Below, in pieces: positions 19,172-43,343 of a stretch of DNA of 49,016 bases. Under the pieces are notes generated by a model. That model was not told where the DNA came from. It saw only the letters and a list, made by a program, of their open reading frames with translations, and did not search any database. How positions within the stretch are numbered: the stretch's first letter is position 1; each line of letters starts with the position of its first letter. Location of the stretch: positions 1-49,016 of the forward strand of contig DMXI01000559.1 in NCBI GenBank assembly GCA_003483885.1, read 5' to 3'. This stretch comes from Microscillaceae bacterium. GTDB taxonomy: Bacteria > Bacteroidota > Bacteroidia > Cytophagales > Microscillaceae. Both the position numbers and the translations under genes were made by a program.

Positions 19172-22100
19172 ATGGCCGATAAAAAACTCTTTGCCTTGTG
19201 TGTAGGCATCAATGAATACCCAACAGGGGTAAGCAACCTGGCAGGTTGTATTGCTGACGCCGAAAACTGGAAAAACTTTTTGGAAACCCATTATCAAAAA
19301 ACGCTCTCCCCAGAAGTACTTCTATTGACCAACGGCCAAGCTACTCGTAAAGGCTTTATAGATGCTTTTCGCAATCACCTGGGTCAAGCTCGTGACGGAG
19401 ACACGGTTTTCTTTCACTACAGTGGTCATGGCTCTCGAGAAAAATCGCCCTCGGCTTACTTAAAGTTTTTCCCCGATGGAATGAATGAAACACTGGTATT
19501 GAGTGACAGTCGGGCTACTAACGAGGATGGTAATTATACAGGGCACGATTTGGCCGATAAAGAACTAGGAAAGCTTCTCGAGGAAGTCATTATAGATAAA
19601 CCGAACTTAAACTTAATAGTATCGCTGGATTGCTGCCACGCTGGTTCAGGTACCCGAGATGTTTCTGGTCTGGCAAATCCACGCCTTACTGGCGATCGCA
19701 CTGACGATGCTCGTTCGTTTGAAACCTACCTCCCTGGTATTTTTACAGGGGCAGAAGTAACCCCTCCCTCTAGTAAACATGTATTGTTGGCTTCTTGCTC
19801 TAAATACCAAAAGGCTTGGGAAACCAAAGAACACACGGGGCTTTTTACTACTTCGGCACTAGAGATACTTGATAAATATGGTACCCAAACTACTTTTGCC
19901 GATTTATACACCCGCACCCGCACATTGATGCGAAAAACCACCAATATTCAAGACCCTCAATTAGAAGTACACGAAAAATACAATGCCAACCAAGTTATTT
20001 TCACGGGTGGAACTTTAGAAGGGGCAGGTCAATACACTCGAAGAATTTACCAAGTAGATAATGTTTGGAAGTTAGATTTTGGGGCCATTCATGGTATGCC
20101 CAATGATAAAACTATAGAGCTAGCTGTATATGAGAGTGCAGATGATTTAAATCAGCAAAAATCTCTGGGCAATGCTAAATCCGTAGACGTAACCGGACAC
20201 AAAACTACCCTTGAGCTTGATTTTGAAGCCGATGCTAATCAAGAATACATTGGGGAGTTTCTCGCGCCACCTACACCTCCCCTTAACGTGTTTATTTATG
20301 GTGCCCAAGAAGGTCAAGAGTTTCTCCAAAAAACGTTTGAAAAACACCCCAGTCTGAATTTTACCTTAACCACCATGGATGATCAGGATGGTTATACTTT
20401 TGATGCAAAATACATCGAGCAAGACAACCCTCACCCCTATTTTGGTGAAGTCAAGATCATCGATAAACAAGGGCAATTAATCACTCCTAAGGCAGGAGAT
20501 TACAACCTTGTGGCTTACTTTGATGGCTACTTCTTATTGGACGAAAATAATCGCCTGATTAAAGGTTGTAAAAGTGGTTATGATGATGATCAAGCCATTA
20601 TCATATTATTCCAACTTCTGGACAAAATCGCCAATTGGGAAAATCTAACGGTCCTTCAAAATAAAGCACCTAAACTGAATCCTGACGATGTAGAGTTCAG
20701 CCTATATGCAGGAGAGAATCAAGAACAAATCGCAGGAACAGAATTCACCGCTTCTTTGGTGGAAGTAGATGATCCTGATGTACCTTGGCCAAGCATTCCT
20801 TTTGAGTTACGATTCAAAAATAACACGAAGCAAGGTCTACACATTTCATTGATATATCTGGATGATCATTATACAGTAATCCCTCTTTATAATGACTACA
20901 TAGAGTCTAAAACTGGCGAAACTACGCTGATAAGCGATGGGTTGCAGATATTAAGTAACAATAGAGACGAAAGTGGTAGGGCATATGATGAAGTGTTAGA
21001 TGAATATCGTTTTAATCAAAGTACAATGATCTTTAAGTTACTAGTCAGTACTGAGCGTCTGGATGACTTTACATTGGAACAAGCCGGCTTTGATATAGGT
21101 CATATTTCTTATAACAGAATACTGGCTTCAAGGGTGAAAGGTGGCATTACAAAACCTGTAAAAAACGATTGGTTTACCAAAACAATCCGAACATACACGA
21201 TACGTCAACGCTCCAAACTAAGCAAAAACGACTTAGCGTTAGGAGAAACCAAACAATTGACCATCAAAGGTCAGGAACAAGTAGCAGCCAATGTAAAGCT
21301 GAGTAGCAGCAATTCTGGCAGTCGCAGCGCTGACAAAACTTCTCTCATGATGAGTTTGCTCGAACAACAGGATGGAAACCTGATCAATTTTGATGGAGCA
21401 GTGGGTGGTACTAATGTATTAGAAATCAACGATGTTCAAGGCGATGAAAAACTCGCAGAAACCCCATTGGAACTCACCCTCAAAGAGGCGGTCTCAGATG
21501 ATGAGTTGCTCCTGCCCCTTACTTTTGACGGAGAACACATCTTTTCGATTGGTGAAACCCAAAGCCTGGAAAATGGCCATACCAACATTGCCATTGATGA
21601 AATACCGGTCGTAGAAGAAGGAAGCCGTAGTTTAGGCAAATCGCTCAAGTTGGCCTTTTTTAAAATCGCCCTCAAGCGCCACCCCGAAAAGATTTATCAA
21701 TTGGCTTGGGTAGAATATTTGAATAGCCAAGATAAAAAGAGCAAGGGAATTATCCAGCGCCATCGGGATAATGACGAAATAGCCAAAAAGGTAGCCAATG
21801 CTACGAAGATCTTGCTGTTGTTGCATGGCATCATTGGTGATACCGAAGATATGGCCATTGCTGTAAAAGAAATTGCGGCCGAAAAGGGGTATGATTTGGT
21901 GCTGAGCTTTGACTACGAAAACCTCAACTCTTCTATAGAAAAAGACATTTCCTGGTCATTGAAAAATCAACTCGAGCAGGTGGGCTTCAAAGCCGATGAC
22001 AGTAAGGAATTGCATATTTTAGCCCAAGGAATGGGCTGTTTAGTAGCTCGCTGGATGGTAGAACGCCGAGGAGGCAACCAATTGGTAGATCGGATGATTT

Positions 22101-22600
22101 TAGTTGGGCCTCCTAGTGGTGGATCGGTATTGGGTACTCTGGAGGCTTATCGCAAATTGGCCACTACAGCGCTCAGTATTGCCGTCAATGTATTGTTGCC
22201 CTTTGCGGGTTGGGCTGGTGGTTTACTCAAAAACATAAAAACCGCCCTTAAACAAGGACAGAAGCTTACCACTACGTTGGCCGAAATGCACGAAAACTCT
22301 ACTTTTATCCGGGATTTGAACGACAGCGATGACCCAGGAGTGCCTTATGCCATTGTAGCAGGAGATGTACGTACATATGAACCAAGTGATGGTAGCAGTT
22401 TCTCTAAGTTTAGAGAAAAGCTTTCCACCAAATTGGGCACTTTTGTAAATGGAGGCGATGCCAATGACATGATTGTGGACTACGCCTCGATGAAACAAGC
22501 GGGAAAAAATAGCCAAGTGGAGATTACGAAGGTGGTTTGTCATCATTTAAACTACTTTCAGGAAGAAGTGAGCCTGGAGACCATCAAAAACCTTTTGTAG
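19172..22600 (+). CDS. Caspase-domain (peptidase C14, orthocaspase-like) protein fused to C-terminal alpha/beta-hydrolase-like domain; ~500-aa uncharacterised middle region
   Basis: 1142 aa; N-terminal ~280 aa with caspase catalytic dyad His (FHYSGHGS) and Cys (DCCHAGSG); C-terminal ~300 aa with alpha/beta hydrolase landmarks LLLHGIIGDTEDM, nucleophile-elbow-like AQGMGCLVARW (Ser position occupied by Gly), VGPPSGGSVLG. Confidence 0.85.
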   Translation: MADKKLFALCVGINEYPTGVSNLAGCIADAENWKNFLETHYQKTLSPEVLLLTNGQATRKGFIDAFRNHLGQARDGDTVFFHYSGHGSREKSPSAYLKFFPDGMNETLVLSDSRATNEDGNYTGHDLADKELGKLLEEVIIDKPNLNLIVSLDCCHAGSGTRDVSGLANPRLTGDRTDDARSFETYLPGIFTGAEVTPPSSKHVLLASCSKYQKAWETKEHTGLFTTSALEILDKYGTQTTFADLYTRTRTLMRKTTNIQDPQLEVHEKYNANQVIFTGGTLEGAGQYTRRIYQVDNVWKLDFGAIHGMPNDKTIELAVYESADDLNQQKSLGNAKSVDVTGHKTTLELDFEADANQEYIGEFLAPPTPPLNVFIYGAQEGQEFLQKTFEKHPSLNFTLTTMDDQDGYTFDAKYIEQDNPHPYFGEVKIIDKQGQLITPKAGDYNLVAYFDGYFLLDENNRLIKGCKSGYDDDQAIIILFQLLDKIANWENLTVLQNKAPKLNPDDVEFSLYAGENQEQIAGTEFTASLVEVDDPDVPWPSIPFELRFKNNTKQGLHISLIYLDDHYTVIPLYNDYIESKTGETTLISDGLQILSNNRDESGRAYDEVLDEYRFNQSTMIFKLLVSTERLDDFTLEQAGFDIGHISYNRILASRVKGGITKPVKNDWFTKTIRTYTIRQRSKLSKNDLALGETKQLTIKGQEQVAANVKLSSSNSGSRSADKTSLMMSLLEQQDGNLINFDGAVGGTNVLEINDVQGDEKLAETPLELTLKEAVSDDELLLPLTFDGEHIFSIGETQSLENGHTNIAIDEIPVVEEGSRSLGKSLKLAFFKIALKRHPEKIYQLAWVEYLNSQDKKSKGIIQRHRDNDEIAKKVANATKILLLLHGIIGDTEDMAIAVKEIAAEKGYDLVLSFDYENLNSSIEKDISWSLKNQLEQVGFKADDSKELHILAQGMGCLVARWMVERRGGNQLVDRMILVGPPSGGSVLGTLEAYRKLATTALSIAVNVLLPFAGWAGGLLKNIKTALKQGQKLTTTLAEMHENSTFIRDLNDSDDPGVPYAIVAGDVRTYEPSDGSSFSKFREKLSTKLGTFVNGGDANDMIVDYASMKQAGKNSQVEITKVVCHHLNYFQEEVSLETIKNLL

Positions 22601-22807: not shown

Positions 22808-23773
22808 ATGAACACCCCCATACGCATAGAATTGCCCACCATTTTTGGGATGAAAACGGTGAATGCTTATTTATTTTTGGAGCCTACTCCTACCCTCGTG
22901 GATTGTGGCGAACAAACCGATAAATCCTGGGAGGTACTGCAGGCGGCACTGGCTGAACATCAATTGCAAATTCAGGATTTGGCTCGAGTAATTATCACTC
23001 ACGCCCATGTAGACCACATAGGAATGGCGGGTAAAATCGCATCTGAAAGCCCTCATACCGAAATTTGGGTTTCTGAGTATGCTTACAATTGGGCAGTAAA
23101 TCCCCAAGAAATGAACAACATTCGCCAGCAGGTAATGCAAGAATATATGCAGTTGTTTCCTCAATTTGTCAATTCACCTTTTCAGCAAATGATGGTACAA
23201 CTATACAAAAAAGCGAGTTCGACCTGGGGCGAAATACCGAAGGATCGCATCAGAAAGTTTACACTGGAAGAGAAGCTGCATCTGGGTAACCTGGATTGGG
23301 AAATTATTTATGCGCCAGGGCATTGCAATCATCAAACTTGCTTTTACCAGCCCGATACCCGACAACTCATTTCGGCTGATATGTTGCTTTCTATCACCCC
23401 TTCGCCCGTCATAGATGTCACTCTTAAGCCTCCCTATAAGCGAGAAAAAAGCTTACATCAGATGATTGAATCGTTCCATAAATTTGCGGCCATGGACATC
23501 GATCAAGTATATCCTGGACATTATGAACCCTTTCAAAACCATCGCGAAATCATTCAAAAACAATTGGACCGCATCAATATGCGCAAAAAACAATGTTTGG
23601 AACTTATCAAAACAGGGGTTGATGATTTTTTTGTATTGCTGACTGAGCTTTACGGAAAAAGTTTTCCCATTCCAGCCATTCCTATGTTGGTAGGTTATCT
23701 TGACTTGTTGGCGGAGGAGCGCCTCATTACTACCAACAAAACCAAGCAAGGTCTTAAGTACTATGTCACCTAA
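22808..23773 (+). CDS. MBL-fold metallo-hydrolase
   Basis: 321 aa; HAHVDH (HxHxDH) motif and downstream His/Asp ligands typical of metallo-beta-lactamase fold. Confidence 0.75.
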   Translation: MNTPIRIELPTIFGMKTVNAYLFLEPTPTLVDCGEQTDKSWEVLQAALAEHQLQIQDLARVIITHAHVDHIGMAGKIASESPHTEIWVSEYAYNWAVNPQEMNNIRQQVMQEYMQLFPQFVNSPFQQMMVQLYKKASSTWGEIPKDRIRKFTLEEKLHLGNLDWEIIYAPGHCNHQTCFYQPDTRQLISADMLLSITPSPVIDVTLKPPYKREKSLHQMIESFHKFAAMDIDQVYPGHYEPFQNHREIIQKQLDRINMRKKQCLELIKTGVDDFFVLLTELYGKSFPIPAIPMLVGYLDLLAEERLITTNKTKQGLKYYVT

Positions 23774-23877
23774 TGATATAACCACAGCTTGAGTTAGGTA
23801 ATGGAGCAAAGATTGTGTATTTTGGAAGTGTCCCAACCCAAAAAACTCGTTCAGACTTACCCAATTATACATTATTT

Positions 23878-24834
23878 ATGAATGATCAAATTAAAGACAA
23901 AATCCGTGGAGCCATCTTTGGCCAAGCCATTGGAGATGCCATCGGACTTGGCACTGAATTTATGACTCAGGCCATGGTCAAGCACTATTACCCAGAGGGG
24001 CTGACTGAATACACCCAAATATTACAAGACAAACATCGAAAACGCTGGAAACCAGGTGAATGGACAGACGATACAAACCAAATGCTGTGTATTTTGGATA
24101 GTATACTGGCCACTAAAAGAGTCGATGTCAAAGACATTGCGCTTACTTTGGTAGACTGGGCACATCACGATGGACGTGGGTCGGGGCGCACTATTACTTC
24201 GGTATTAGGATCACCAATTTTTATGCAACGTCCCCACGAAGCTGCCAAAAATTATTGGGAACAATCTAATCGATACGCTGCGGCTAATGGGGCCGTCATG
24301 CGCACCTCAGTATTAGGAGTTTGGGAATATGATAAGCCCGAAAAAATCAGAATCAATGCCACCAAAGTGTGTAAGATCACCCATTATGATCCGCGCTGTG
24401 TAGGCTCTTGTGTTATGACTTGCCTGGCCATTAGTCGCTTACTCCAGGGCGAAACCGATATGGAACAACTCTCCTATAGTCTTTTGTTGGAAGGCGATAT
24501 TTTTGATCAACGTATTCGTCCTTTTTTAGCAGAACATTTACACCCTAACATAGCAGTACTCAATCTGAGCGATACCAGCAACCTTGGGTACACCCTAAAG
24601 GCGTTGGGTGCTGGACTTTGGGCCTTGCAGTATGCTCCCTCGTTCGATTCGGGAATTTCTACGATTATTCATGAAGGAGGCGATGCCGACACCAATGCCG
24701 CGGTAGCAGGCGCTATCTTAGGGGCCAAGTTTGGTTATGAGGCTTTACCCACTCGCTGGAAAGATCACCTACATCGCAAAGACTGGTTGATGGAGCAAAC
24801 CGAGCAACTTATTGCCCTGTTGGAAGCGGCATAG
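23878..24834 (+). CDS. ADP-ribosylglycohydrolase family protein
   Basis: N-terminal GAIFGQAIGDAIGLGTEF motif (ARH family), C-terminal GGDADTNAAVAGAILGAKFG metal-binding Asp cluster; ORF begins 23815 but MNDQIKDKIRGAIFG (23878) is likelier start. Confidence 0.8.
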   Translation: MNDQIKDKIRGAIFGQAIGDAIGLGTEFMTQAMVKHYYPEGLTEYTQILQDKHRKRWKPGEWTDDTNQMLCILDSILATKRVDVKDIALTLVDWAHHDGRGSGRTITSVLGSPIFMQRPHEAAKNYWEQSNRYAAANGAVMRTSVLGVWEYDKPEKIRINATKVCKITHYDPRCVGSCVMTCLAISRLLQGETDMEQLSYSLLLEGDIFDQRIRPFLAEHLHPNIAVLNLSDTSNLGYTLKALGAGLWALQYAPSFDSGISTIIHEGGDADTNAAVAGAILGAKFGYEALPTRWKDHLHRKDWLMEQTEQLIALLEAA

Positions 24835-35678: not shown

Positions 35679-38237
35679 TTAATCTTCGTCTTCCTCATCC
35701 ACTACATCATCTTCCATTCCATTGAGGCTAGACTCTAGCACATTGGCCAGCTTGGTCCCTTTAAGCATATTGGTAAACACCTGGGCTACACTCTTGCCTC
35801 CCAAAATAGCCAACGGTGACATCGATTTGGCCATTTTTTCAGCCAATGATTTATCAGCAAAAGCTTGCAAGGCTGCAATCAAATTGGGCGACACCGCTTC
35901 GGCTTTGTTTACTACTGCCTGTACCTCAGCTCGAAGTAGCTCAAGCTCTTGATGCAATTCTTTTTGGGCAATTTCCAGTACCAACTCCTCTTCTTTTTGC
36001 TTACGAGCCAGTTCGGCATCTTTGATCTGAGTCAATGAATCTTGTTCAGCTAAATTGGCCTCCAGCTGACGTTGCTTAGACTGTATCTCCATGTCTAGTT
36101 TTGCCAAAATAACCTCAAGCTCCTTTTTAGATTCTTTCTTTTCCAAATCAAATTGCTTTTGGGTAGTATCAGACTTGGTACTGGCAATCTGTTGGTTAAT
36201 TTCTTCGCTTTGTTGGGTAAACTCTAATTTACGTTTTTCAGCATCTATGCGCAGGGTTTGCTTAACAACCTCTTGTTGGGCCGAAATGAGTAAGTTTTCA
36301 ATACTGACATCACTCAAACGAATGTCCAGCACCTCGATGTCATAAATACGCATGTTGTTTTCTTCAAACACTCGCCCAGGACGCTTATTGTTTTCTCCAG
36401 CTTGGCCCAAGATACTGTTGCGTAAAATATCGATACCATTGGCATAAAAATCCATAATGGTGTGTTTCTTTACCACATTGCGAATAAACGAACGCATATG
36501 GTCAGTCAAAAACTTGACATAGTTCTCTACATTGAACCATTTGTCCGATTCTTCTTCAAAATTGACCCGGTAAGAAATGGTAATGCTTACTTGGGTAAAG
36601 TCAGAAGATTCGGCTTTGACAATATCAGATATTTTGTTGTGCAATACCCGTAAATACACCGTGGTAATGGTGTTATCAGAGGTTTTGGGTGTTCCGGTAG
36701 AAAGCGTGATGGGCTCCAGGCTTTCGTCATACTCTAGTAAATAAGTCTGAGGGCCAGCAATGACTTTGCGTTGCCCAGTTTTGCTTACCACTAAAATAGC
36801 ATATCCAGTCCAAAGGTTAATGGTTACAGCGCCATCGTATTTGGTATCTAGAGTGATGGTACGAGGTGGGGTAAAAGTTTGCTCCCGGGTAAATTCATCT
36901 CCCGCCATTTCTTTCGATACCTTTTCTTTCTTTTTACGACGAGGGGCTGGCATAGGAATTTCATCAGCCAGTTCTTCAGCTTCCATCGCGGCGGCGGCTG
37001 GCTCTGCCGATATTTCCAGGTACCCTTCGTTAGACTTACGTCGGTCCAGCTCTTGTTTAAGTTGGCGGTTGTATTCCAAAGCTTCGCTATTGCCCGGAAA
37101 CCACAGCTTTACTTGCTTGGGGTCTAGGACCCGTTTTACAAACACCGCCTCGCGAGGGTCAGGCAAAAACATCACGGGGCCTTTTTTGAGTGATACTTTT
37201 CCGGTTTTTCGGTTGAGGTAATAACGCCCCTCTCCTGCCGGGATGGCAATGGCGTAGTGTCGCTCTTTTTGCCCATACTTGATAATGGCATGCTCAGGAC
37301 GAGGGTAATAAATCATTTGTTCATTACCAGTTACAAACAACTCCTCCCCTTCTTTGAAAGAAGTACCATTCTCCTCATAAGGAGCAATTACTTTGATGTA
37401 CAACCCACTCATCTCGTTGAGTTCAATGGCTCGAAACTTACGCGACCCATTACGGTATACAAATTCTTCGGTAGGCTCTGGGAAAACTACCGCGGGGCCT
37501 TGAATGTAACGCTTATTGCCATCTTCATCCAATAAAATACAATACTCTAAACGCTCCAAAGTGACCGCTTCTCGCACGTAGTTTCCATTCACCCCTCGTA
37601 CTACTTCTATCCCAGTAGGAGGAATATAAAAAGAAACCGCATCCCCTTTGATGATAAGCATCTTACCCATGGTCAAATCGGGCATTTCTTCCAGGTTTGT
37701 CAAATCGGTATCAGAACCCTCCCCTCCTTCTTTATCTTCCTCCCCATCTTTTGCCTCAGTAGAATTCTTGGTTTTAATCACCGCCTTGGTCCAGTTTTGT
37801 CGAGCTTCTTCTTCGTCGTATACCCTTACAGCCAAGTACTGATTGGAGCGTAAATTATGCCCACGCAATACTTTAACCATTTGTCCAGGCCAAAGCGCAA
37901 AATTGATAGGCCCTGGAATGTTAACTTTACGTCCTACATTCAATGCAGTAAGGTTATTTACGGTACCATTCTGAGGTTGGGTACCATCCTGAGACGGGTT
38001 TTTCATGACTACATACCAACCTTCGGGAGCAGTAGTAAAGGTTTGAAGAGAATTGTCCAGGTTAGAACGTTCGAATTTTTTAGTATCGGCATCAAAAATC
38101 ACCGGTTTATCGGTGTTGGCCAAACTGGTTTTATAAGGGCCTACATATACGTTGATGTTTCCCTTGGTTTGGTCAGATATAAAAGCAAATTCATTGGGAG
38201 CGAGCACCAAATCGCGCTCTCGGTTTGAGTCTGACAT
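35679..38237 (-). CDS. Major vault protein (MVP) homolog
   Basis: 852 aa; N-terminal ~470 aa of consecutive ~55-aa beta-rich MVP-type repeats, shoulder/SPFH-like segment (VSITISYRVNFEEESDKWFNVENYVKFLTDHMRSFIRNVV collinear with vertebrate MVP shoulder), ~170-aa heptad coiled-coil (cap-helix) and C-terminal segment EAVSPNLIAALQAFADKSLAEKMAKSMSPLAILGG collinear with MVP [36 protein letters not shown]. Confidence 0.8.
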   Translation of the reverse strand: MSDSNRERDLVLAPNEFAFISDQTKGNINVYVGPYKTSLANTDKPVIFDADTKKFERSNLDNSLQTFTTAPEGWYVVMKNPSQDGTQPQNGTVNNLTALNVGRKVNIPGPINFALWPGQMVKVLRGHNLRSNQYLAVRVYDEEEARQNWTKAVIKTKNSTEAKDGEEDKEGGEGSDTDLTNLEEMPDLTMGKMLIIKGDAVSFYIPPTGIEVVRGVNGNYVREAVTLERLEYCILLDEDGNKRYIQGPAVVFPEPTEEFVYRNGSRKFRAIELNEMSGLYIKVIAPYEENGTSFKEGEELFVTGNEQMIYYPRPEHAIIKYGQKERHYAIAIPAGEGRYYLNRKTGKVSLKKGPVMFLPDPREAVFVKRVLDPKQVKLWFPGNSEALEYNRQLKQELDRRKSNEGYLEISAEPAAAAMEAEELADEIPMPAPRRKKKEKVSKEMAGDEFTREQTFTPPRTITLDTKYDGAVTINLWTGYAILVVSKTGQRKVIAGPQTYLLEYDESLEPITLSTGTPKTSDNTITTVYLRVLHNKISDIVKAESSDFTQVSITISYRVNFEEESDKWFNVENYVKFLTDHMRSFIRNVVKKHTIMDFYANGIDILRNSILGQAGENNKRPGRVFEENNMRIYDIEVLDIRLSDVSIENLLISAQQEVVKQTLRIDAEKRKLEFTQQSEEINQQIASTKSDTTQKQFDLEKKESKKELEVILAKLDMEIQSKQRQLEANLAEQDSLTQIKDAELARKQKEEELVLEIAQKELHQELELLRAEVQAVVNKAEAVSPNLIAALQAFADKSLAEKMAKSMSPLAILGGKSVAQVFTNMLKGTKLANVLESSLNGMEDDVVDEEDED

Positions 38238-38463
38238 ATAGTTGTTTTTTTTGATTAAGTTCGGTATTTCTTAGGGAAATGAATTTACATAAAAATTTGA
38301 GTTTTGAGGCATCAGTATCCTTTTTTTTGACTTTAGTGATTCATTCCTTCATTCAGAAACAAATAGTATCAAAAACAAGGTTGCTGCTCTGCTTCCAAAA
38401 GCCAGAAAGCCTTCGGAGTTACTGTTCCAAAAGCTTTCTAACAATCATAAACAGAATGGCATT

Positions 38464-39228
38464 TTAGCGCCCAAAAACCGCTTTTTGATAGAGTTTTTCT
38501 ACTGCTGGATCGCTTTTATATTTGTTATACAATGTTTTTATCATCGCTTCTGGTTGGTCTGCAAGTGGATTATATCCTTTTTTTATAAAATAGAGGTAAA
38601 CGTCATCGGCTGGTTTTAAAAATAATAAAAACATCAGGCGAGGGTTATTCAACTTCTTCAAAGCCTTTTTTGAGTCAATGAGGGTTTGTAAATATCCTTT
38701 ATAATCTTGTTTCGTCATAACCCTGAGCGGCTTTGCTTTTTGAAAGGCATCCATCTGCTTTTCGGTATACATATGCAAAAAAAATGGTGGAGGTTTAAGT
38801 GCTTCATTGGCCTCTTGAATATTGATAAAATACCCAGTAGGGCTTATTTGAGGGTTGACATACAATATAAACTTTTTTTGATTGGTGGTATCGGCTATAA
38901 ATCGCCAAATGCCTTGTTGCTTGCTTATGGTAGTAAACTTTGTAAGATGCATATCTTTAAGAGCTCCCGCCTCATAACTTTCCGTCTTCAGGGTATTCCC
39001 TTTCAGGATCAACTTACTATTGTATACCTTTACTTTGCTGGTTCCCTTGGAGTTGTTCGCTTGTTGTTGATTACTCAAATTCGAGTTAAAACTCGCTTTT
39101 ACCTTGGCTTTGAAACCACTCATGAGTACATACCAGGTTCCTTCCAGATTTTGGGCGTTTGAAACAAAACTGTACAAACAAATAAAGGTAAAGAGGAGTA
39201 CCTTTTTGAAGTGATTTATAGACATCAT
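38464..39228 (-). CDS. Hypothetical secreted protein (signal peptide), immediately upstream of MVP homolog on same strand
   Basis: 254 aa; MMSINHFKKVLLFTFICLYSFVSNAQN signal peptide; no recognised family. Confidence 0.55.
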   Translation of the reverse strand: MMSINHFKKVLLFTFICLYSFVSNAQNLEGTWYVLMSGFKAKVKASFNSNLSNQQQANNSKGTSKVKVYNSKLILKGNTLKTESYEAGALKDMHLTKFTTISKQQGIWRFIADTTNQKKFILYVNPQISPTGYFINIQEANEALKPPPFFLHMYTEKQMDAFQKAKPLRVMTKQDYKGYLQTLIDSKKALKKLNNPRLMFLLFLKPADDVYLYFIKKGYNPLADQPEAMIKTLYNKYKSDPAVEKLYQKAVFGR

Positions 39229-39461
39229 GTATTGTGAGTTAGGTGAATAATGAAAGTGTTTATAATATAACTCTTATTAATTACAGATTAATGCAAACAC
39301 TTCCTAGAATATATCTACAAACCTTGTTATTACTTCTTTTAGTCTTGAGGTGCACCCTCCGCAAGTTTTTAGTCTTACCAGTAGAGAAGGTGTTGTAGCA
39401 TCTTTTTTCGTTAAAACCCTACAGCAAATAATGCTTTATGCATTTTGGAGTCATTACAAAA

Positions 39462-39500
39462 AAGCTAAGTCTTTGGTTTCAGCACATTGAAACCAAAGAC
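39462..39500 (-). terminator. Strong intrinsic terminator after DUF4157 gene
   Basis: tctttggtttca / tgaaaccaaaga 12-bp perfect stem, 7-nt loop, followed on minus strand by ttagctttttt. Confidence 0.7.
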
Positions 39501-39541
39501 TGCATTTGTTAAGGTTCTACGAAAAACAACGCCTTGTAATA

Positions 39542-40963
39542 TTAAGCCTCTCGACGCAGGAACGTACTAGTTGCCTCATTATATTCATAACCATATTTAG
39601 CCATCAAGGCTTGAACACCCGCATAGCCATTTTCAATCGTATCTAATTCAAGTTTGTAAGAACTTGTTCTGGTACTACCTTCTTTATTACTTACTAAGCG
39701 TACTTTATCCCCCCTCTGAAAGGCAGATTCAAGAAAAGGAAGGTTGAACTGTTGCCAGACAAAAGTCTGCGCAACCGACATGGCCAATGTCAGTATAAGT
39801 TTGATATGGCCTTCACTTAAATATTCACGCGCTTTCTGTTTTACTTGTTCTAAGTTTAAATCATCCAAATCAGATAAGTGACTTTCTTGTGCAAATTTAC
39901 GCAAATGCTGTGAAAGAAAATCTTTTTGGGCATACTCTACAATTTCATCATAATCTACCACAGCCAAAACTTTGAGTCCTGGAATATCGCTATCATATAA
40001 TCCCCCACCTCCTCTCACTTTTGCCATTGTACCTTCTGGTAATCCTTTGATATCGAGATCACCTCCTTTGAATCCTACAAAATTTCGGGTACCACCGGAT
40101 AGAGGATTGGTCCATTCTTCACCAAATTTTCCTAATAGAAGCGTGGACTTGCTATCATCATCTATGACTACATCTCCTCCAAAACCGTGATATAAAAACT
40201 TGACAATGCCGTTTTCCTTTACCGCAAACTCTTTGTTGTTTTCCGCATCCTGGTAATGGGTAGTGTCCCCATCTTCAACCACATTGACGTTAGGATTACC
40301 CTCCAACTTTCTAACCAGGTTTTGAATTTTGTCATCTATGCGAGGTATCAGCCTACGTTGTACTGGCCCGCCAGAAGATACCACCCCTTGCTGCCCTAAA
40401 TTTTCGGTACCTTGATTCTCTTTCCTCTGCAAAGGCTGCGCCGCCATATTGTCTACGGTTTGCTCTCGGGTGGTATCTACCGATTGTCCATTAACTACTT
40501 TGTCGCCTTTTGGGGTGCCATTTTTAGCGTTGTCTATGGCGTGGGCCACTTCATGTTTCATGTTGGCCTCCGTGTCTTTGCCAGGAGCAAAGTCAATTTT
40601 GTTGCCTTGAATGGTGGCTTCGGCATTGACCGTGTCTGGGAAGGACGAATTATGGGTGGCTTTGAGTTGAGAAGTATCTACCCCGTGTTGTTGCCCCATA
40701 GTGGTAGCTATTTCCTTAAACTTGGCGGAGCCTTGGGGTTGCTCCCCCTTTGTTTGCCCAGTAGTGTTGCGTTGCACGGGTCGTTGCTTGGCTTGAACCG
40801 GCCTTTGTTTGGATTGGATGGGCTTCTGCTTGGCCTGAATTGGCTTTTGTTTCGCTTGAACAGGTTTTTGCTTCGCCTGAATTGTGCTCTGACTTTGTGT
40901 AGTTGATGGATTATTTTGTTTTTGAACGTTGTGGTTATCATTAGATAAAGCGTGCTGATGCAT
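39542..40963 (-). CDS. DUF4157 (eCIS-associated toxin-type metallopeptidase-like) domain protein with N-terminal QAKQKPx tandem repeat and unknown C-terminal domain
   Basis: 473 aa; DUF4157 signature layout KEIATTMGQQHGVDTSQLKATHNS ... AEATIQGNKIDFAPGK ... MKHEVAHAIDN (HExxH) ; residues 27-66 five 7-aa repeats; C-terminal ~300 aa no recognised family. Confidence 0.65.
   Translation of the reverse strand: MHQHALSNDNHNVQKQNNPSTTQSQSTIQAKQKPVQAKQKPIQAKQKPIQSKQRPVQAKQRPVQRNTTGQTKGEQPQGSAKFKEIATTMGQQHGVDTSQLKATHNSSFPDTVNAEATIQGNKIDFAPGKDTEANMKHEVAHAIDNAKNGTPKGDKVVNGQSVDTTREQTVDNMAAQPLQRKENQGTENLGQQGVVSSGGPVQRRLIPRIDDKIQNLVRKLEGNPNVNVVEDGDTTHYQDAENNKEFAVKENGIVKFLYHGFGGDVVIDDDSKSTLLLGKFGEEWTNPLSGGTRNFVGFKGGDLDIKGLPEGTMAKVRGGGGLYDSDIPGLKVLAVVDYDEIVEYAQKDFLSQHLRKFAQESHLSDLDDLNLEQVKQKAREYLSEGHIKLILTLAMSVAQTFVWQQFNLPFLESAFQRGDKVRLVSNKEGSTRTSSYKLELDTIENGYAGVQALMAKYGYEYNEATSTFLRREA
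40786..40890. repeat. 5 x 21-bp in-frame tandem repeat inside DUF4157 gene (encodes KQKPVQA-type heptads)
   Basis: Visible nucleotide periodicity cttggcttgaaccggcctttg / tttggattggatgggcttctg / cttggcctgaattggcttttg / tttcgcttgaacaggtttttg / cttcgcctgaattgtgctctg. Confidence 0.75.
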
Positions 40964-41678
40964 GTGCGTTTTTAAAATTAGATAAAACCTTGAATGCTTA
41001 ATTCAATCTGGATACAAAAAGAAGTCAACTTGCGGCAAAAGGCCTTTTGCGACAAATCACCCATTTTTTCAAGGCTTTATAACAATTACTCTTTGCTACA
41101 AACCTCAAAAATCCTCTTAAACCCAGTACTAACTTCGTTTTTAAAAACTTTTTCTTTCAGGCATACACCTGATGACTGCAATCAGTAACCCTTACAAGAC
41201 ACTGCAATATATGGTTGCCTTGAGTCAATATATTTACTAATAATGCATTGAACCACATTGTACTATATCAAGAGATCTCCTTTTTATTTAATAAGATGTC
41301 ATCCTCAGGCAATCACGCTGAAAACAGGGTTAAAAAACTCTCATAAACCAAATATAACAGTGAATGTATAGTGATTAAAATAGGTTGGGGGAGGCGTATT
41401 TATTCAAAGAATTGCCTTAGAAAAAGCATTAAGGCAATACTACTTAGGCTTCTCTATGGTTTGAAAAACTTTCAATGAATGTGCGAAATGGTTTCGTTAG
41501 CAAAAACCTAACACAGGCATTTTTTTCATAAAATCTTGGCATAATTCGTTATATTACCGTTAGCATTTTGATTGGCTATAAAAATTAGCAGATTTTGTAC
41601 AGGATACATTGCTCGAAAAAGCTAATTTTGTTTGAAAACCAACTGTTACTCATACCAAACATTCAAATAGTTATTTCT

Positions 41679-43343
41679 ATGAAGTTGAAAAGTATTTTTG
41701 TAGTAGGTTTGCTACTCGCTCAAATAGGTTTGGCCAATGCCAAAACCCCTGCTACTAAGAAGTTCCCTTATCCTATTATTCATCTCCAGGAAGTGTACTG
41801 GGTAGTAGGCAGTGACACATCCAAGACACCTCCTAAAAACTGGTTTAACCTAGACACCAAAAAAGACAACATTCGGGGAGTAAGTACCGAAAGGGTATAT
41901 GAGACCTTGTTGAAAGGCAAAAAATCTACTACCGTAGTAGTAGCCGTGATTGACTCTGGCATAGATACCAAACATCCAGACTTGAAAGAACACATTTGGG
42001 TAAACCCCAAAGAAAAACCAGGAAATGGTAAAGATGATGATAAAAACGGCTATGTAGATGACATCAACGGCTGGGATTTTATTGGTGGAAAAGACGGCAA
42101 AGATGTAGATGCAGATACTTATGAAGTAACTCGAGAGTTGGTTCGTCTAGAAAAAAAATTTGCGGATAAAGACCCCGAAAAACTACGCAAAAAAGAAAAG
42201 AAAGAATATCAGTATTATCTCAAGGTAAAAAAGTCTTATACGAGACAAGCTTCGGAAGCACGCCAGGGATATACTGTGATGAAACAAATTTGGGCGGCTT
42301 ATCAGGTCGTGCAAAAAAGTCTGGACAAAAAAGAATTCACCAAAGAGGATCTTGATAATATCAAAAGTGATGACCAGGACGTAGTACAAGCGGGTCAGAT
42401 CTTAAAACGTGCCATTGGGTTTGGTATTCCTTTGAACCAAATCGGAGATGCTTACAAGCAATACGAGTCTATGTTTAAATATGGGGTAAACAAGGATTTT
42501 AACCCTCGTACTATTGTGGGAGATGACTATAAAAAACTAGACGAAAAAGGTTATGGAAACAATGAAGTACAAGGCCCAGACGCAGACCATGGCACACACG
42601 TAGCCGGTATTATTGGTGCAGATCGCACCAACGATGTAGGCATTAAAGGTGTAGCCGACAATGTAAAAATTATGGTACTAAGAGCAGTGCCTAATGGAGA
42701 CGAAAGGGATAAAGACATTGCCAATGCCATTCGTTATGCAGTGGATAACGGTGCGCGCATTATCAATATGAGTTTTGGTAAATCTTTTTCACCAAATAAA
42801 GAATATGTAGACAAGGCTGTAAAATATGCCCAAAAGAAAGGAGTACTTCTGGTACACGCTGCGGGTAATGATGGCTCTAACCTGGATGAAAATGATAACT
42901 TCCCCAACAAAAACTTTAAGAACTCTAAGAAATTTGCCAAAAACTGGATTGAAGTAGGAGCTTCTTCCTGGGGAGATGAAAAGAATTTTGTAGGTGGTTT
43001 TTCTAACTACGGTAAAAAGACGGTAGATGTATTTGCTCCTGGAGTAGCTATTAACTCTACCATTCCTGATGACAAATATACTGAACATGATGGTACCAGT
43101 ATGGCAGCCCCAGTAGTTTCAGGAGTAGCTGCTTTGTTGATGTCTTACTTCCCTGACTTGAGCGCTGAAGATGTGAAAGAAATTATTTTGAAATCCTCTG
43201 TAAAATATACAGATAAGGAAATCAACAAGCCAGGAAGCCGTAACGGACAAACCATCAAGTTTGGAGAATTATCGGTAACTGGAGGTATTGTAAATGCCTA
43301 TGAAGCTGTAAAAATGGCGCAAAACTGGAAAAACAACAAATAA
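41679..43343 (+). CDS. S8 family serine peptidase (subtilisin-like), secreted
   Basis: Catalytic triad contexts VAVIDSGID (Asp), HGTHVAGII (His), GTSMAAPVVSG (Ser); signal peptide MKLKSIFVVGLLLAQIGLANA (ORF extends to 41595). Confidence 0.85.
   Translation: MKLKSIFVVGLLLAQIGLANAKTPATKKFPYPIIHLQEVYWVVGSDTSKTPPKNWFNLDTKKDNIRGVSTERVYETLLKGKKSTTVVVAVIDSGIDTKHPDLKEHIWVNPKEKPGNGKDDDKNGYVDDINGWDFIGGKDGKDVDADTYEVTRELVRLEKKFADKDPEKLRKKEKKEYQYYLKVKKSYTRQASEARQGYTVMKQIWAAYQVVQKSLDKKEFTKEDLDNIKSDDQDVVQAGQILKRAIGFGIPLNQIGDAYKQYESMFKYGVNKDFNPRTIVGDDYKKLDEKGYGNNEVQGPDADHGTHVAGIIGADRTNDVGIKGVADNVKIMVLRAVPNGDERDKDIANAIRYAVDNGARIINMSFGKSFSPNKEYVDKAVKYAQKKGVLLVHAAGNDGSNLDENDNFPNKNFKNSKKFAKNWIEVGASSWGDEKNFVGGFSNYGKKTVDVFAPGVAINSTIPDDKYTEHDGTSMAAPVVSGVAALLMSYFPDLSAEDVKEIILKSSVKYTDKEINKPGSRNGQTIKFGELSVTGGIVNAYEAVKMAQNWKNNK

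Follow-up and report, generated by a model that had tools for sequence, protein, structure and literature searches.

A divergent DUF4157 core and a strain-exchanged C-terminal domain in a putative orphan effector of a Microscillaceae bacterium

We analysed a 49,016-nt stretch of DNA from a Microscillaceae bacterium (contig DMXI01000559.1 of assembly GCA_003483885.1; hereafter the window) and in particular one gene on its minus strand, at 39542..40963, which starts with ATG in the open reading frame (ORF) listing and encodes a putative modular DUF4157-type effector of 473 aa plus stop. The gene is real. A Microscillaceae metagenome-assembled genome (MAG) has the identical product on record as hypothetical protein DCS93_35365, the orthologues share the MHQ start, and identical copies of the gene lie on coral black-band-disease metagenome contigs (JGI 3300003311 ‘LKpool’ and ENA PRJNA269585) from samples described in PMC5394123. 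An S8 subtilisin-like peptidase (41595-43343, plus strand) is encoded divergently to it and an 852-aa major vault protein (MVP) homologue with MVP_shoulder and a weak Vault_3 match (35679-38237, minus strand) directly downstream, and this order of S8 peptidase, gene and MVP homologue is kept in four related genomes.

A BLASTP search with the whole protein showed that only three of 120 homologues are full-length relatives. Two of these come from AO1-C, a related cultured marine bacterium with a large draft assembly, namely P0002 (BKI52_24950, 62% identity) and the paralogue P0004 (BKI52_14730, 47% identity), and the third, P0003, was found in a coral metagenome from Guam and shares 58% protein identity with the window protein. 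By the same search, 116 of the 120 listed homologues align over residues ~1-205 only and then diverge. Pfam annotation of 80 homologues gave C-termini as varied as ACTMAP-like, Peptidase_C80, VirD5, calpain, M91, OTU, HopA1, deaminase and EEP domains. The named paralogues, frequently in tandem arrays, number at least 11 from the window MAG, with other effector-like ends, and 11 from AO1-C. The gene family is modular with exchangeable C-termini, and a conserved N-terminal part joined to C-terminal domains that are unrelated among paralogues and strains is the pattern by which polymorphic toxins are recognized.

The N-terminal region (residues 1-78; 40730..40963, minus strand) is hydrophilic, basic and Q/K/P-rich, with a grand average of hydropathy of -1.69, an isoelectric point of 11.3, 24% Gln and 83% disorder-promoting residues; by this compositional proxy it is probably disordered. 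No Sec signal peptide was found at the N-terminus of the 473-aa protein, where the composition is strongly hydrophilic. DUF4157 is a marker of toxins associated with extracellular contractile injection systems (eCIS; PMC8213781; PMC11297309), a group within the contractile injection systems (CIS). In Algoriphagus machipongonensis two such proteins, Cgo1 and Cgo2, fill the tube lumen of AlgoCIS (PMC8894135), and their loading needs a disordered N-terminal region whereas DUF4157 is dispensable (bioRxiv 10.64898/2026.05.27.728243). From its composition and by analogy with Cgo1 and Cgo2, residues 1-78 are therefore a putative loading sequence that would address the protein to a CIS tube.

This region holds five in-frame heptads of the form A-K-Q-[KR]-P-[VI]-Q (residues 30-64; 40772..40876, minus strand), A30-Q64 reading AKQKPVQ AKQKPIQ AKQKPIQ SKQRPVQ AKQRPVQ, and Tandem Repeats Finder reported a period of 21 at 40784-40884 with 4.8 copies, 71% matches and a score of 90. 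An earlier reading made from the letters of the window (the sequence-only reading) had described five 21-bp repeats at 40786-40890, within ~15 nt of where we place them, and had supposed them to be recent and perhaps variable in copy number between strains. The repeats are real but their supposed youth is not borne out, because the copies are only 71% alike at the nucleotide level and the same five copies are present in P0003, from a ~98%-identical strain, and in the AO1-C orthologue P0002, at ~75-80% nucleotide identity; they are thus old and conserved. Nor did copy number vary between the two strains compared. The paralogue P0004 has six heptads, and the number spans 0-6 across the 120 homologues.

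Residues 79-175 (40439..40729, minus strand) form a divergent DUF4157, or eCIS_core, domain that is recognizable as PF13699 at profile level (Pfam match at residues 84-146). Searched alone, PF13699 matched residues 84-146 over profile positions 5-76 of 79 with 13.0 bits (E=0.12), and an NCBIfam search of the window protein gave no match. In Pfam, PF13699 was matched by 15 of 80 close homologues, the best at 4.1e-12. A subfamily profile hidden Markov model (HMM) made from residues 78-182 of the 120 homologues aligns from end to end with the PF13699 domain that P0129 has at residues 207-309 (independent E-value 5.5e-13; 70.8 bits in Pfam itself), and in the same way with the PF13699 region of P0152 (5.6e-11). 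In the HMM alignment the sub-branch of the window protein is six residues shorter than bona fide DUF4157 just before the HExxH motif, which explains its low Pfam score. The DUF4157 pattern noted by the sequence-only reading thus stands at the profile level, in the 15 of 80 homologues and the subfamily HMM, while the PF13699 check on the protein itself fails (13 against 22 bits).

The HExxH zinc-binding motif, likewise noted earlier, is present as H137-E138-V-A-H141 (40541..40555, minus strand). None of 80 homologues departs from H137, E138, H141 or E167, and E167, which is aligned with a Glu of bona fide DUF4157 proteins, is a plausible candidate for the third zinc ligand. At the level of sequence comparison these results identify the core as a divergent DUF4157 domain with an intact metal-binding motif HExxH...E, a putatively zinc-peptidase-like domain. 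The curated Pfam threshold misses this whole marine Bacteroidota sub-branch of DUF4157, and censuses of eCIS effectors therefore probably undercount orphan effectors.

The core is followed by two short junction motifs. The first, P-L-Q-R-K, occupies residues 177-181 (40421..40435, minus strand). The second, P-V-Q-R-R, occupies residues 200-204; the interval 40355..40369 (minus strand) covers residues 199-203 (G-P-V-Q-R), the R204 codon lies outside it at 40352-40354, and the exchangeable part of the protein starts just after R203. Q202 is at least 90% conserved across the 120 homologues. Motifs of the form [VLI]-Q-R are repeated at offsets of about -75, +40 and +60 residues relative to HExxH, the +40 copy being found in 38 homologues, and they are absent from the true DUF4157 proteins P0129 and P0140. 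In the window protein a third Q-R motif site was seen at residues 62-66, in addition to those at 177-181 and 200-204. P0121 has seven junction motifs in tandem.

The position of these motifs became clear on comparison with L006 and L008, contigs of a second strain that come from Guam and from a second coral sample. By blastn, window positions 48682-40355 are 97.9-98.6% identical to L006, positions 40354-38458 have no similarity to it, and positions 38457-35988 are again 97.1% identical. On the left the similarity breaks off with the final base of codon R203 (40355), at the end of P-V-Q-R, and the right breakpoint lies 6 nt past the stop of a 254-aa ORF, so that the exchanged unit (38458..40354, blastn against L006 and L008) consists exactly of the C-terminal domain, a terminator and the downstream ORF. 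In its place stands, in the Guam strain, a C-terminal domain that is of the same family but shares 31% identity, together with a different 142-aa ORF. In a third relative, L017, the synteny of S8 peptidase, gene and MVP homologue is the same but the C-terminal domain (P0005) is unrelated, and nucleotide similarity to the window ends at 40420, directly behind P-L-Q-R-K181. Both breakpoints (40355 against L006 and 40420 against L017) fall exactly behind P-V-Q-R or P-L-Q-R-K, and the P-[VL]-Q-R-[KR] motifs mark the start of the variable part. We have here a cassette exchange at the strain level, at a conserved junction motif. A foreign origin of the cassette was also considered by composition, and its GC content was unremarkable (0.374 against a window mean of 0.396).

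The terminator in the cassette is an intrinsic-terminator-like hairpin with a T-run (39468..39501, minus strand; terminator scan). It had been described as a 12-bp stem at 39462-39500; the hairpin is real and has a 14-bp stem with a 6-nt loop at 39501-39468. None of the coordinates of the sequence-only reading is off by more than ~15 nt.

The kept order of S8 peptidase, gene and MVP homologue could be read in two other ways. Housekeeping synteny across relatives had been named beforehand as a sign against an effector, and such synteny is indeed found, with the S8 peptidase and MVP genes in four relatives, yet the C-terminal domain is replaced among those same relatives, which argues for a polymorphic effector and not against one. 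The order could also mean that the gene is functionally tied to its MVP neighbour, for instance as a cargo or processing factor of a bacterial vault-like particle, and the genera that bear MVP (Microscilla, Saprospira, Moorea) are also rich in DUF4157 effectors. We regard this as very improbable. Plain synteny among four closely related genomes is in itself a sufficient account of the order, the gene and the MVP homologue are separated by a strong terminator and, in two strains, by an unrelated ORF, P0004 and the other family members examined have no MVP neighbour within 10 kb, and the C-terminal domain was exchanged while MVP stayed 97% identical.

The C-terminal domain itself (residues ~204-473; 39545..40354, minus strand) belongs to an unannotated, polymorphic-toxin-like family that came out of an exhaustive HMMER search. 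Made with residues 200-473, this search gave 66 representative clusters, of which 30 fell under 1e-10; a word-indexed search returned only the query when the domain was used alone and 18 matches when the profile was used. Pfam and NCBIfam searches of the domain gave no match, PDB sequence searches with the N-terminal and C-terminal profiles gave none either, and a PHROGs search returned weak noise only, in accordance with the earlier remark that this part resembles no recognized family. In most clusters the domain ends 0-5 residues from the protein end, on proteins of 260-2231 aa. Its carriers include P0129 and P0140 with bona fide PF13699 (71 and 62 bits), P0138 with TssD/Hcp (91 bits), P0143 with Fil_haemagg_2 and DUF637 (CdiA-like) and P0134 with Tox-MPTase4.

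In the Zhang/Aravind framework a polymorphic toxin domain is recognized by its presence, as one and the same C-terminal module, on proteins that take different routes of secretion. The same module on Hcp, CdiA-like, PF13699 and Tox-MPTase4 carriers therefore suggests a domain of polymorphic-toxin type, and by sequence the family is shared by secretion-system carriers. The suggestion that this part could be a novel toxin domain gains from these hallmarks, C-terminal position and diverse carriers; the domain may thus be toxic and act on a target of its own. An AlphaFold2 model of residues 244-473 made with 21 sequences was confident (pLDDT 89.8, pTM 0.84), and Foldseek found no match for it in the PDB (best E 0.028, TM 0.18), so that the fold is unmatched among solved structures.

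Downstream of the gene and inside the exchanged cassette lies the 254-aa ORF (38464..39228, minus strand; ORF listing), which by inspection has an apparent Sec-type signal peptide (MMSINHFKKVLLFTFICLYSFVSNA|Q). Pfam gave no match for it, and no homologue was found in 961 kb of fetched loci. We consider it a candidate partner, immunity protein or passenger. In three unrelated contigs, L012, L013 (twice) and L014, a gene with this C-terminal domain is immediately followed by an ORF of 128-147 aa (L012 6809-7252; L013 1029-1415 and 2639-3064; L014 6788-7198). These small ORFs have no Pfam match, are mutually homologous (best pair 4e-16) and would be a candidate new immunity family. The one in L014 lies in an array with an Imm74 gene. 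An HMM of the small ORFs gave a single other match, weak at E=3.3e-4, which was the 142-aa ORF behind the C-terminal-domain gene of the Guam strain (L006 9082-9510). In hhalign the two align over 116 columns with the same residue order (E~1e-3, probability 22%), which is suggestive of a relationship between the Guam ORF and the small immunity-like ORFs.

The conservation of the C-terminal domain raises the question of whether it is still a toxin in this clade. Across 45 family members K279, W403, N407, D419, R422, S425 and E439 are conserved, and where 40 of the 45 have the Asp of an N-x-L-D motif the window protein has Ala334. It is thus possible that the window domain is enzymatically altered. 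In the alignment none of the four Microscillaceae sequences (P0001-P0004) has this Asp. One could thus suppose that the domain has degenerated or been repurposed in this clade, for binding, for regulation or for a non-lethal action directed at eukaryotes, and that no immunity gene is needed. The lack of an immunity-family ORF beside the window and AO1-C genes would fit, as would the many paralogues with eukaryote-type domains (calpain, OTU, ACTMAP, HopA1). We nevertheless consider such a loss of toxicity rather unlikely, as the other invariant polar residues (K279, N407, D419, R422, S425 and E439) are kept, the Guam variant P0003, also without the Asp, has an immunity-like ORF behind it, and many validated eCIS toxins have no immunity gene (PMC8213781).

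To place the N-terminal subfamily in its genomic context one genome per species was scanned, which gave 48 subfamily loci, and the neighbour genes were then clustered. Nearly all of these loci come from marine Bacteroidota, nine of them from AO1-C. In 11-16 of the 48, the subfamily genes immediately follow, in the same orientation, the 3' end of an eCIS operon, where Baseplate_J, a C1q-domain fibre, an 820-aa protein, CIS_TMP (359 bits) and an AAA ATPase are encoded. The eCIS-adjacent loci belong to Aquimarina spp., Algibacter, Ascidiimonas and unclassified Bacteroidota. At the level of the subfamily, adjacency to eCIS operons is thus a direct observation. In L035 (149-9796) and 10 similar loci the eCIS 3' end is followed by 2-8 tandem DUF4157-subfamily genes, and an Amidase_2 gene and two small genes, all three conserved, lie further downstream. 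The relative Microscilla marina is catalogued with eCIS loci and an S74 fibre (PMC12923769 supplement), and relatives with a type VI secretion system (T6SS) of the T6SSiv kind have DUF4157 effector candidates (bioRxiv 10.1101/2024.01.29.577165).

Taken together these results lead us to favour, as the reasonably probable explanation, that the gene product is an orphan CIS-delivered polymorphic effector of the DUF4157 (eCIS_core) class. The N-terminal heptad-bearing region would most likely thread the protein into a CIS tube, by analogy with AlgoCIS Cgo1 and Cgo2. The divergent zinc-peptidase-like DUF4157 core, with HExxH...E intact, would form a second module, and a linker with P-[VL]-Q-R-[KR] motifs precedes the variable part. 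The ~270-aa C-terminal domain would behave as a polymorphic toxin module, swapped between strains as a cassette together with the ORF behind it. Delivery would presumably be by an eCIS or a related CIS encoded elsewhere in the genome, and CIS delivery of the window protein in this organism is thus what we infer rather than what the window displays.

Several observations weigh against this explanation. The window protein falls under the curated PF13699 threshold (13.0 against 22 bits), and since DUF4157 is dispensable for AlgoCIS loading its presence is no proof of loading. There is no CIS gene within 10 kb of the Microscillaceae members examined (AO1-C, M. marina and the window MAG), and no CIS family among the ORFs of the 49-kb window scanned with Pfam, in agreement with the sequence-only reading, which had seen no eCIS structural genes there; a few ORFs at ~24.8-35.6 kb were outside the direct Pfam scan, and of these ~30.3-34.3 kb was covered by synteny with the AO1-C locus L004 only. 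The toxicity of the C-terminal family is presumed from sequence, and the window copy carries Ala334 in place of the common Asp. The 254-aa ORF was rejected as a member of the immunity-like family (hhalign probability 0.1%), and the AO1-C orthologue has no partner ORF behind the gene.

Some of the same facts would fit a polymorphic toxin that leaves the cell by a route other than a CIS, such as release by lysis or an uncharacterised exporter, the DUF4157-like module then being a pre-toxin or processing domain. In Microscillaceae the copies seen stand singly and dispersed or in tandem arrays, far from CIS genes, one of them in a type I restriction-modification locus, and the same C-terminal domain is also found on CdiA-like and other carriers. 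Against this stand the eCIS operons directly in front of the same N-terminal subfamily in 11-16 other loci, the lack of any Sec signal peptide or type IX secretion system sorting domain in the protein, and the statistical association between DUF4157 and eCIS (odds ratio 2614; PMC8213781). A non-CIS route therefore seems to us unlikely. The restriction-modification locus is that of the M. marina paralogue P0027, which lies between hsdR and hsdS/hsdM (L063 10001-11641, AAWS01000040.1).

The closest known counterparts of the window protein as a CIS effector are Cgo1 and Cgo2, with which it shares the order Cytophagales, the layout of disordered N-terminus, DUF4157 and variable C-terminus, and the lack of a Sec signal; it is also near Cgo1 in size (473 against 498 aa). 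It differs from them in that they are encoded in the CIS cluster and their loading is proven, whereas no CIS gene accompanies the orphan window gene within 49 kb. Its DUF4157 core also differs from theirs, being of a divergent sub-branch that is six residues shorter ahead of HExxH and scores under the Pfam cut-off. With the eCIS-associated toxins (EATs), which often have no immunity gene, it has in common an N-terminal DUF4157 with HExxH and a putative C-terminal toxin domain (PMC8213781; PMC11297309). Yet for 88% of EATs the eCIS operon is no more than ten genes away (PMC8213781; PMC11297309), which is not so for the window gene, and the C-terminal domain of the latter is also found on Hcp and CdiA-like proteins. 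Of 1130 predicted DUF4157-toxin fusions 983 are without an annotated second domain (Danov 2024, PMC11297309).

The exchange of the cassette has its parallel in contact-dependent and Rhs toxins. In CdiA-CT/CdiI and Rhs-CT systems cassettes of C-terminal toxin and immunity gene are exchanged, in CdiA at the VENN junction motif, and the window gene resembles them in its conserved N-terminus, its short junction motif (P-V-Q-R in place of VENN) and its strain-swapped C-terminus and ORF. As in polymorphic toxin systems in general, the same C-terminal domain is found on different trafficking modules. In contrast to CdiA and Rhs the carrier is of DUF4157 type and has neither haemagglutinin nor RHS repeats, and the partner ORF in the window, which has an apparent signal peptide, bears no relation to the immunity-like family; AO1-C has no such ORF.

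T6SS effectors with DUF4157-type metallopeptidase domains are also said to exist. The window protein is like them and like the effector candidates of the Aureispira T6SSiv (bioRxiv 10.1101/2024.01.29.577165) in having a DUF4157 module of the kind found on contractile-system substrates, a link that is by analogy only, and unlike them in that no T6SS genes were seen near family members. M. marina shares the grappling-hook structures of its ixotrophic relatives (bioRxiv 10.1101/2024.01.29.577165).

DUF4157-toxin fusions as such are already well known, and the cargo predicted for eCIS consists mainly of DUF4157 effectors. What is new here is the unannotated C-terminal family, the sub-threshold marine DUF4157 sub-branch with its P-x-Q-R motifs, and the cassette exchange between Florida and Guam. 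The C-terminal family offers a new candidate toxin domain that can be tested, with 66 representative clusters, a confident model without a neighbour in the PDB, and carriers that belong to several routes of secretion. The Florida and Guam black-band-disease populations of one species provide a natural before-and-after view of a cassette exchange, and the sharp junction motif could guide the design of chimeric cargo for programmable injection systems.

The Q-R motifs may have a role beyond marking the junction. One may speculate that P-[VLI]-Q-R-[KR] sequences are junction signals and perhaps also sites at which DUF4157 processes its own polypeptide, freeing the loading sequence and the toxin after injection, the toxin having a C-terminal fold absent from the PDB. 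We hold this to be a long shot; if it were true, self-processing would give DUF4157 its long-sought function.

The window is otherwise of housekeeping character, with H+-PPase, MscS, an M48 peptidase, Fur, ADH and a PALP enzyme among its products, as well as polyprenyl synthase, RNase III, KAS II and pyruvate kinase. That Microscilla, Saprospira and Moorea have MVP homologues has been reported before (PMC3762200; bioRxiv 10.1101/872010), and the reported richness of related lineages in DUF4157 effectors (Moorea, PMC11297309; Aureispira, bioRxiv 10.1101/2024.01.29.577165) may be coincidence. Elsewhere in the window a 1142-aa protein (19172-22597, plus strand) combines an N-terminal caspase domain (Peptidase_C14, 80 bits) with a C-terminal DUF7379. 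Judging by this architecture, we presume that it may be a protein of conflict or cell-death type. Downstream of its gene an ADP-ribosylglycohydrolase (224 bits; 23815-24831, plus strand) is encoded beside a metallo-beta-lactamase-fold protein (22808-23770, plus strand).

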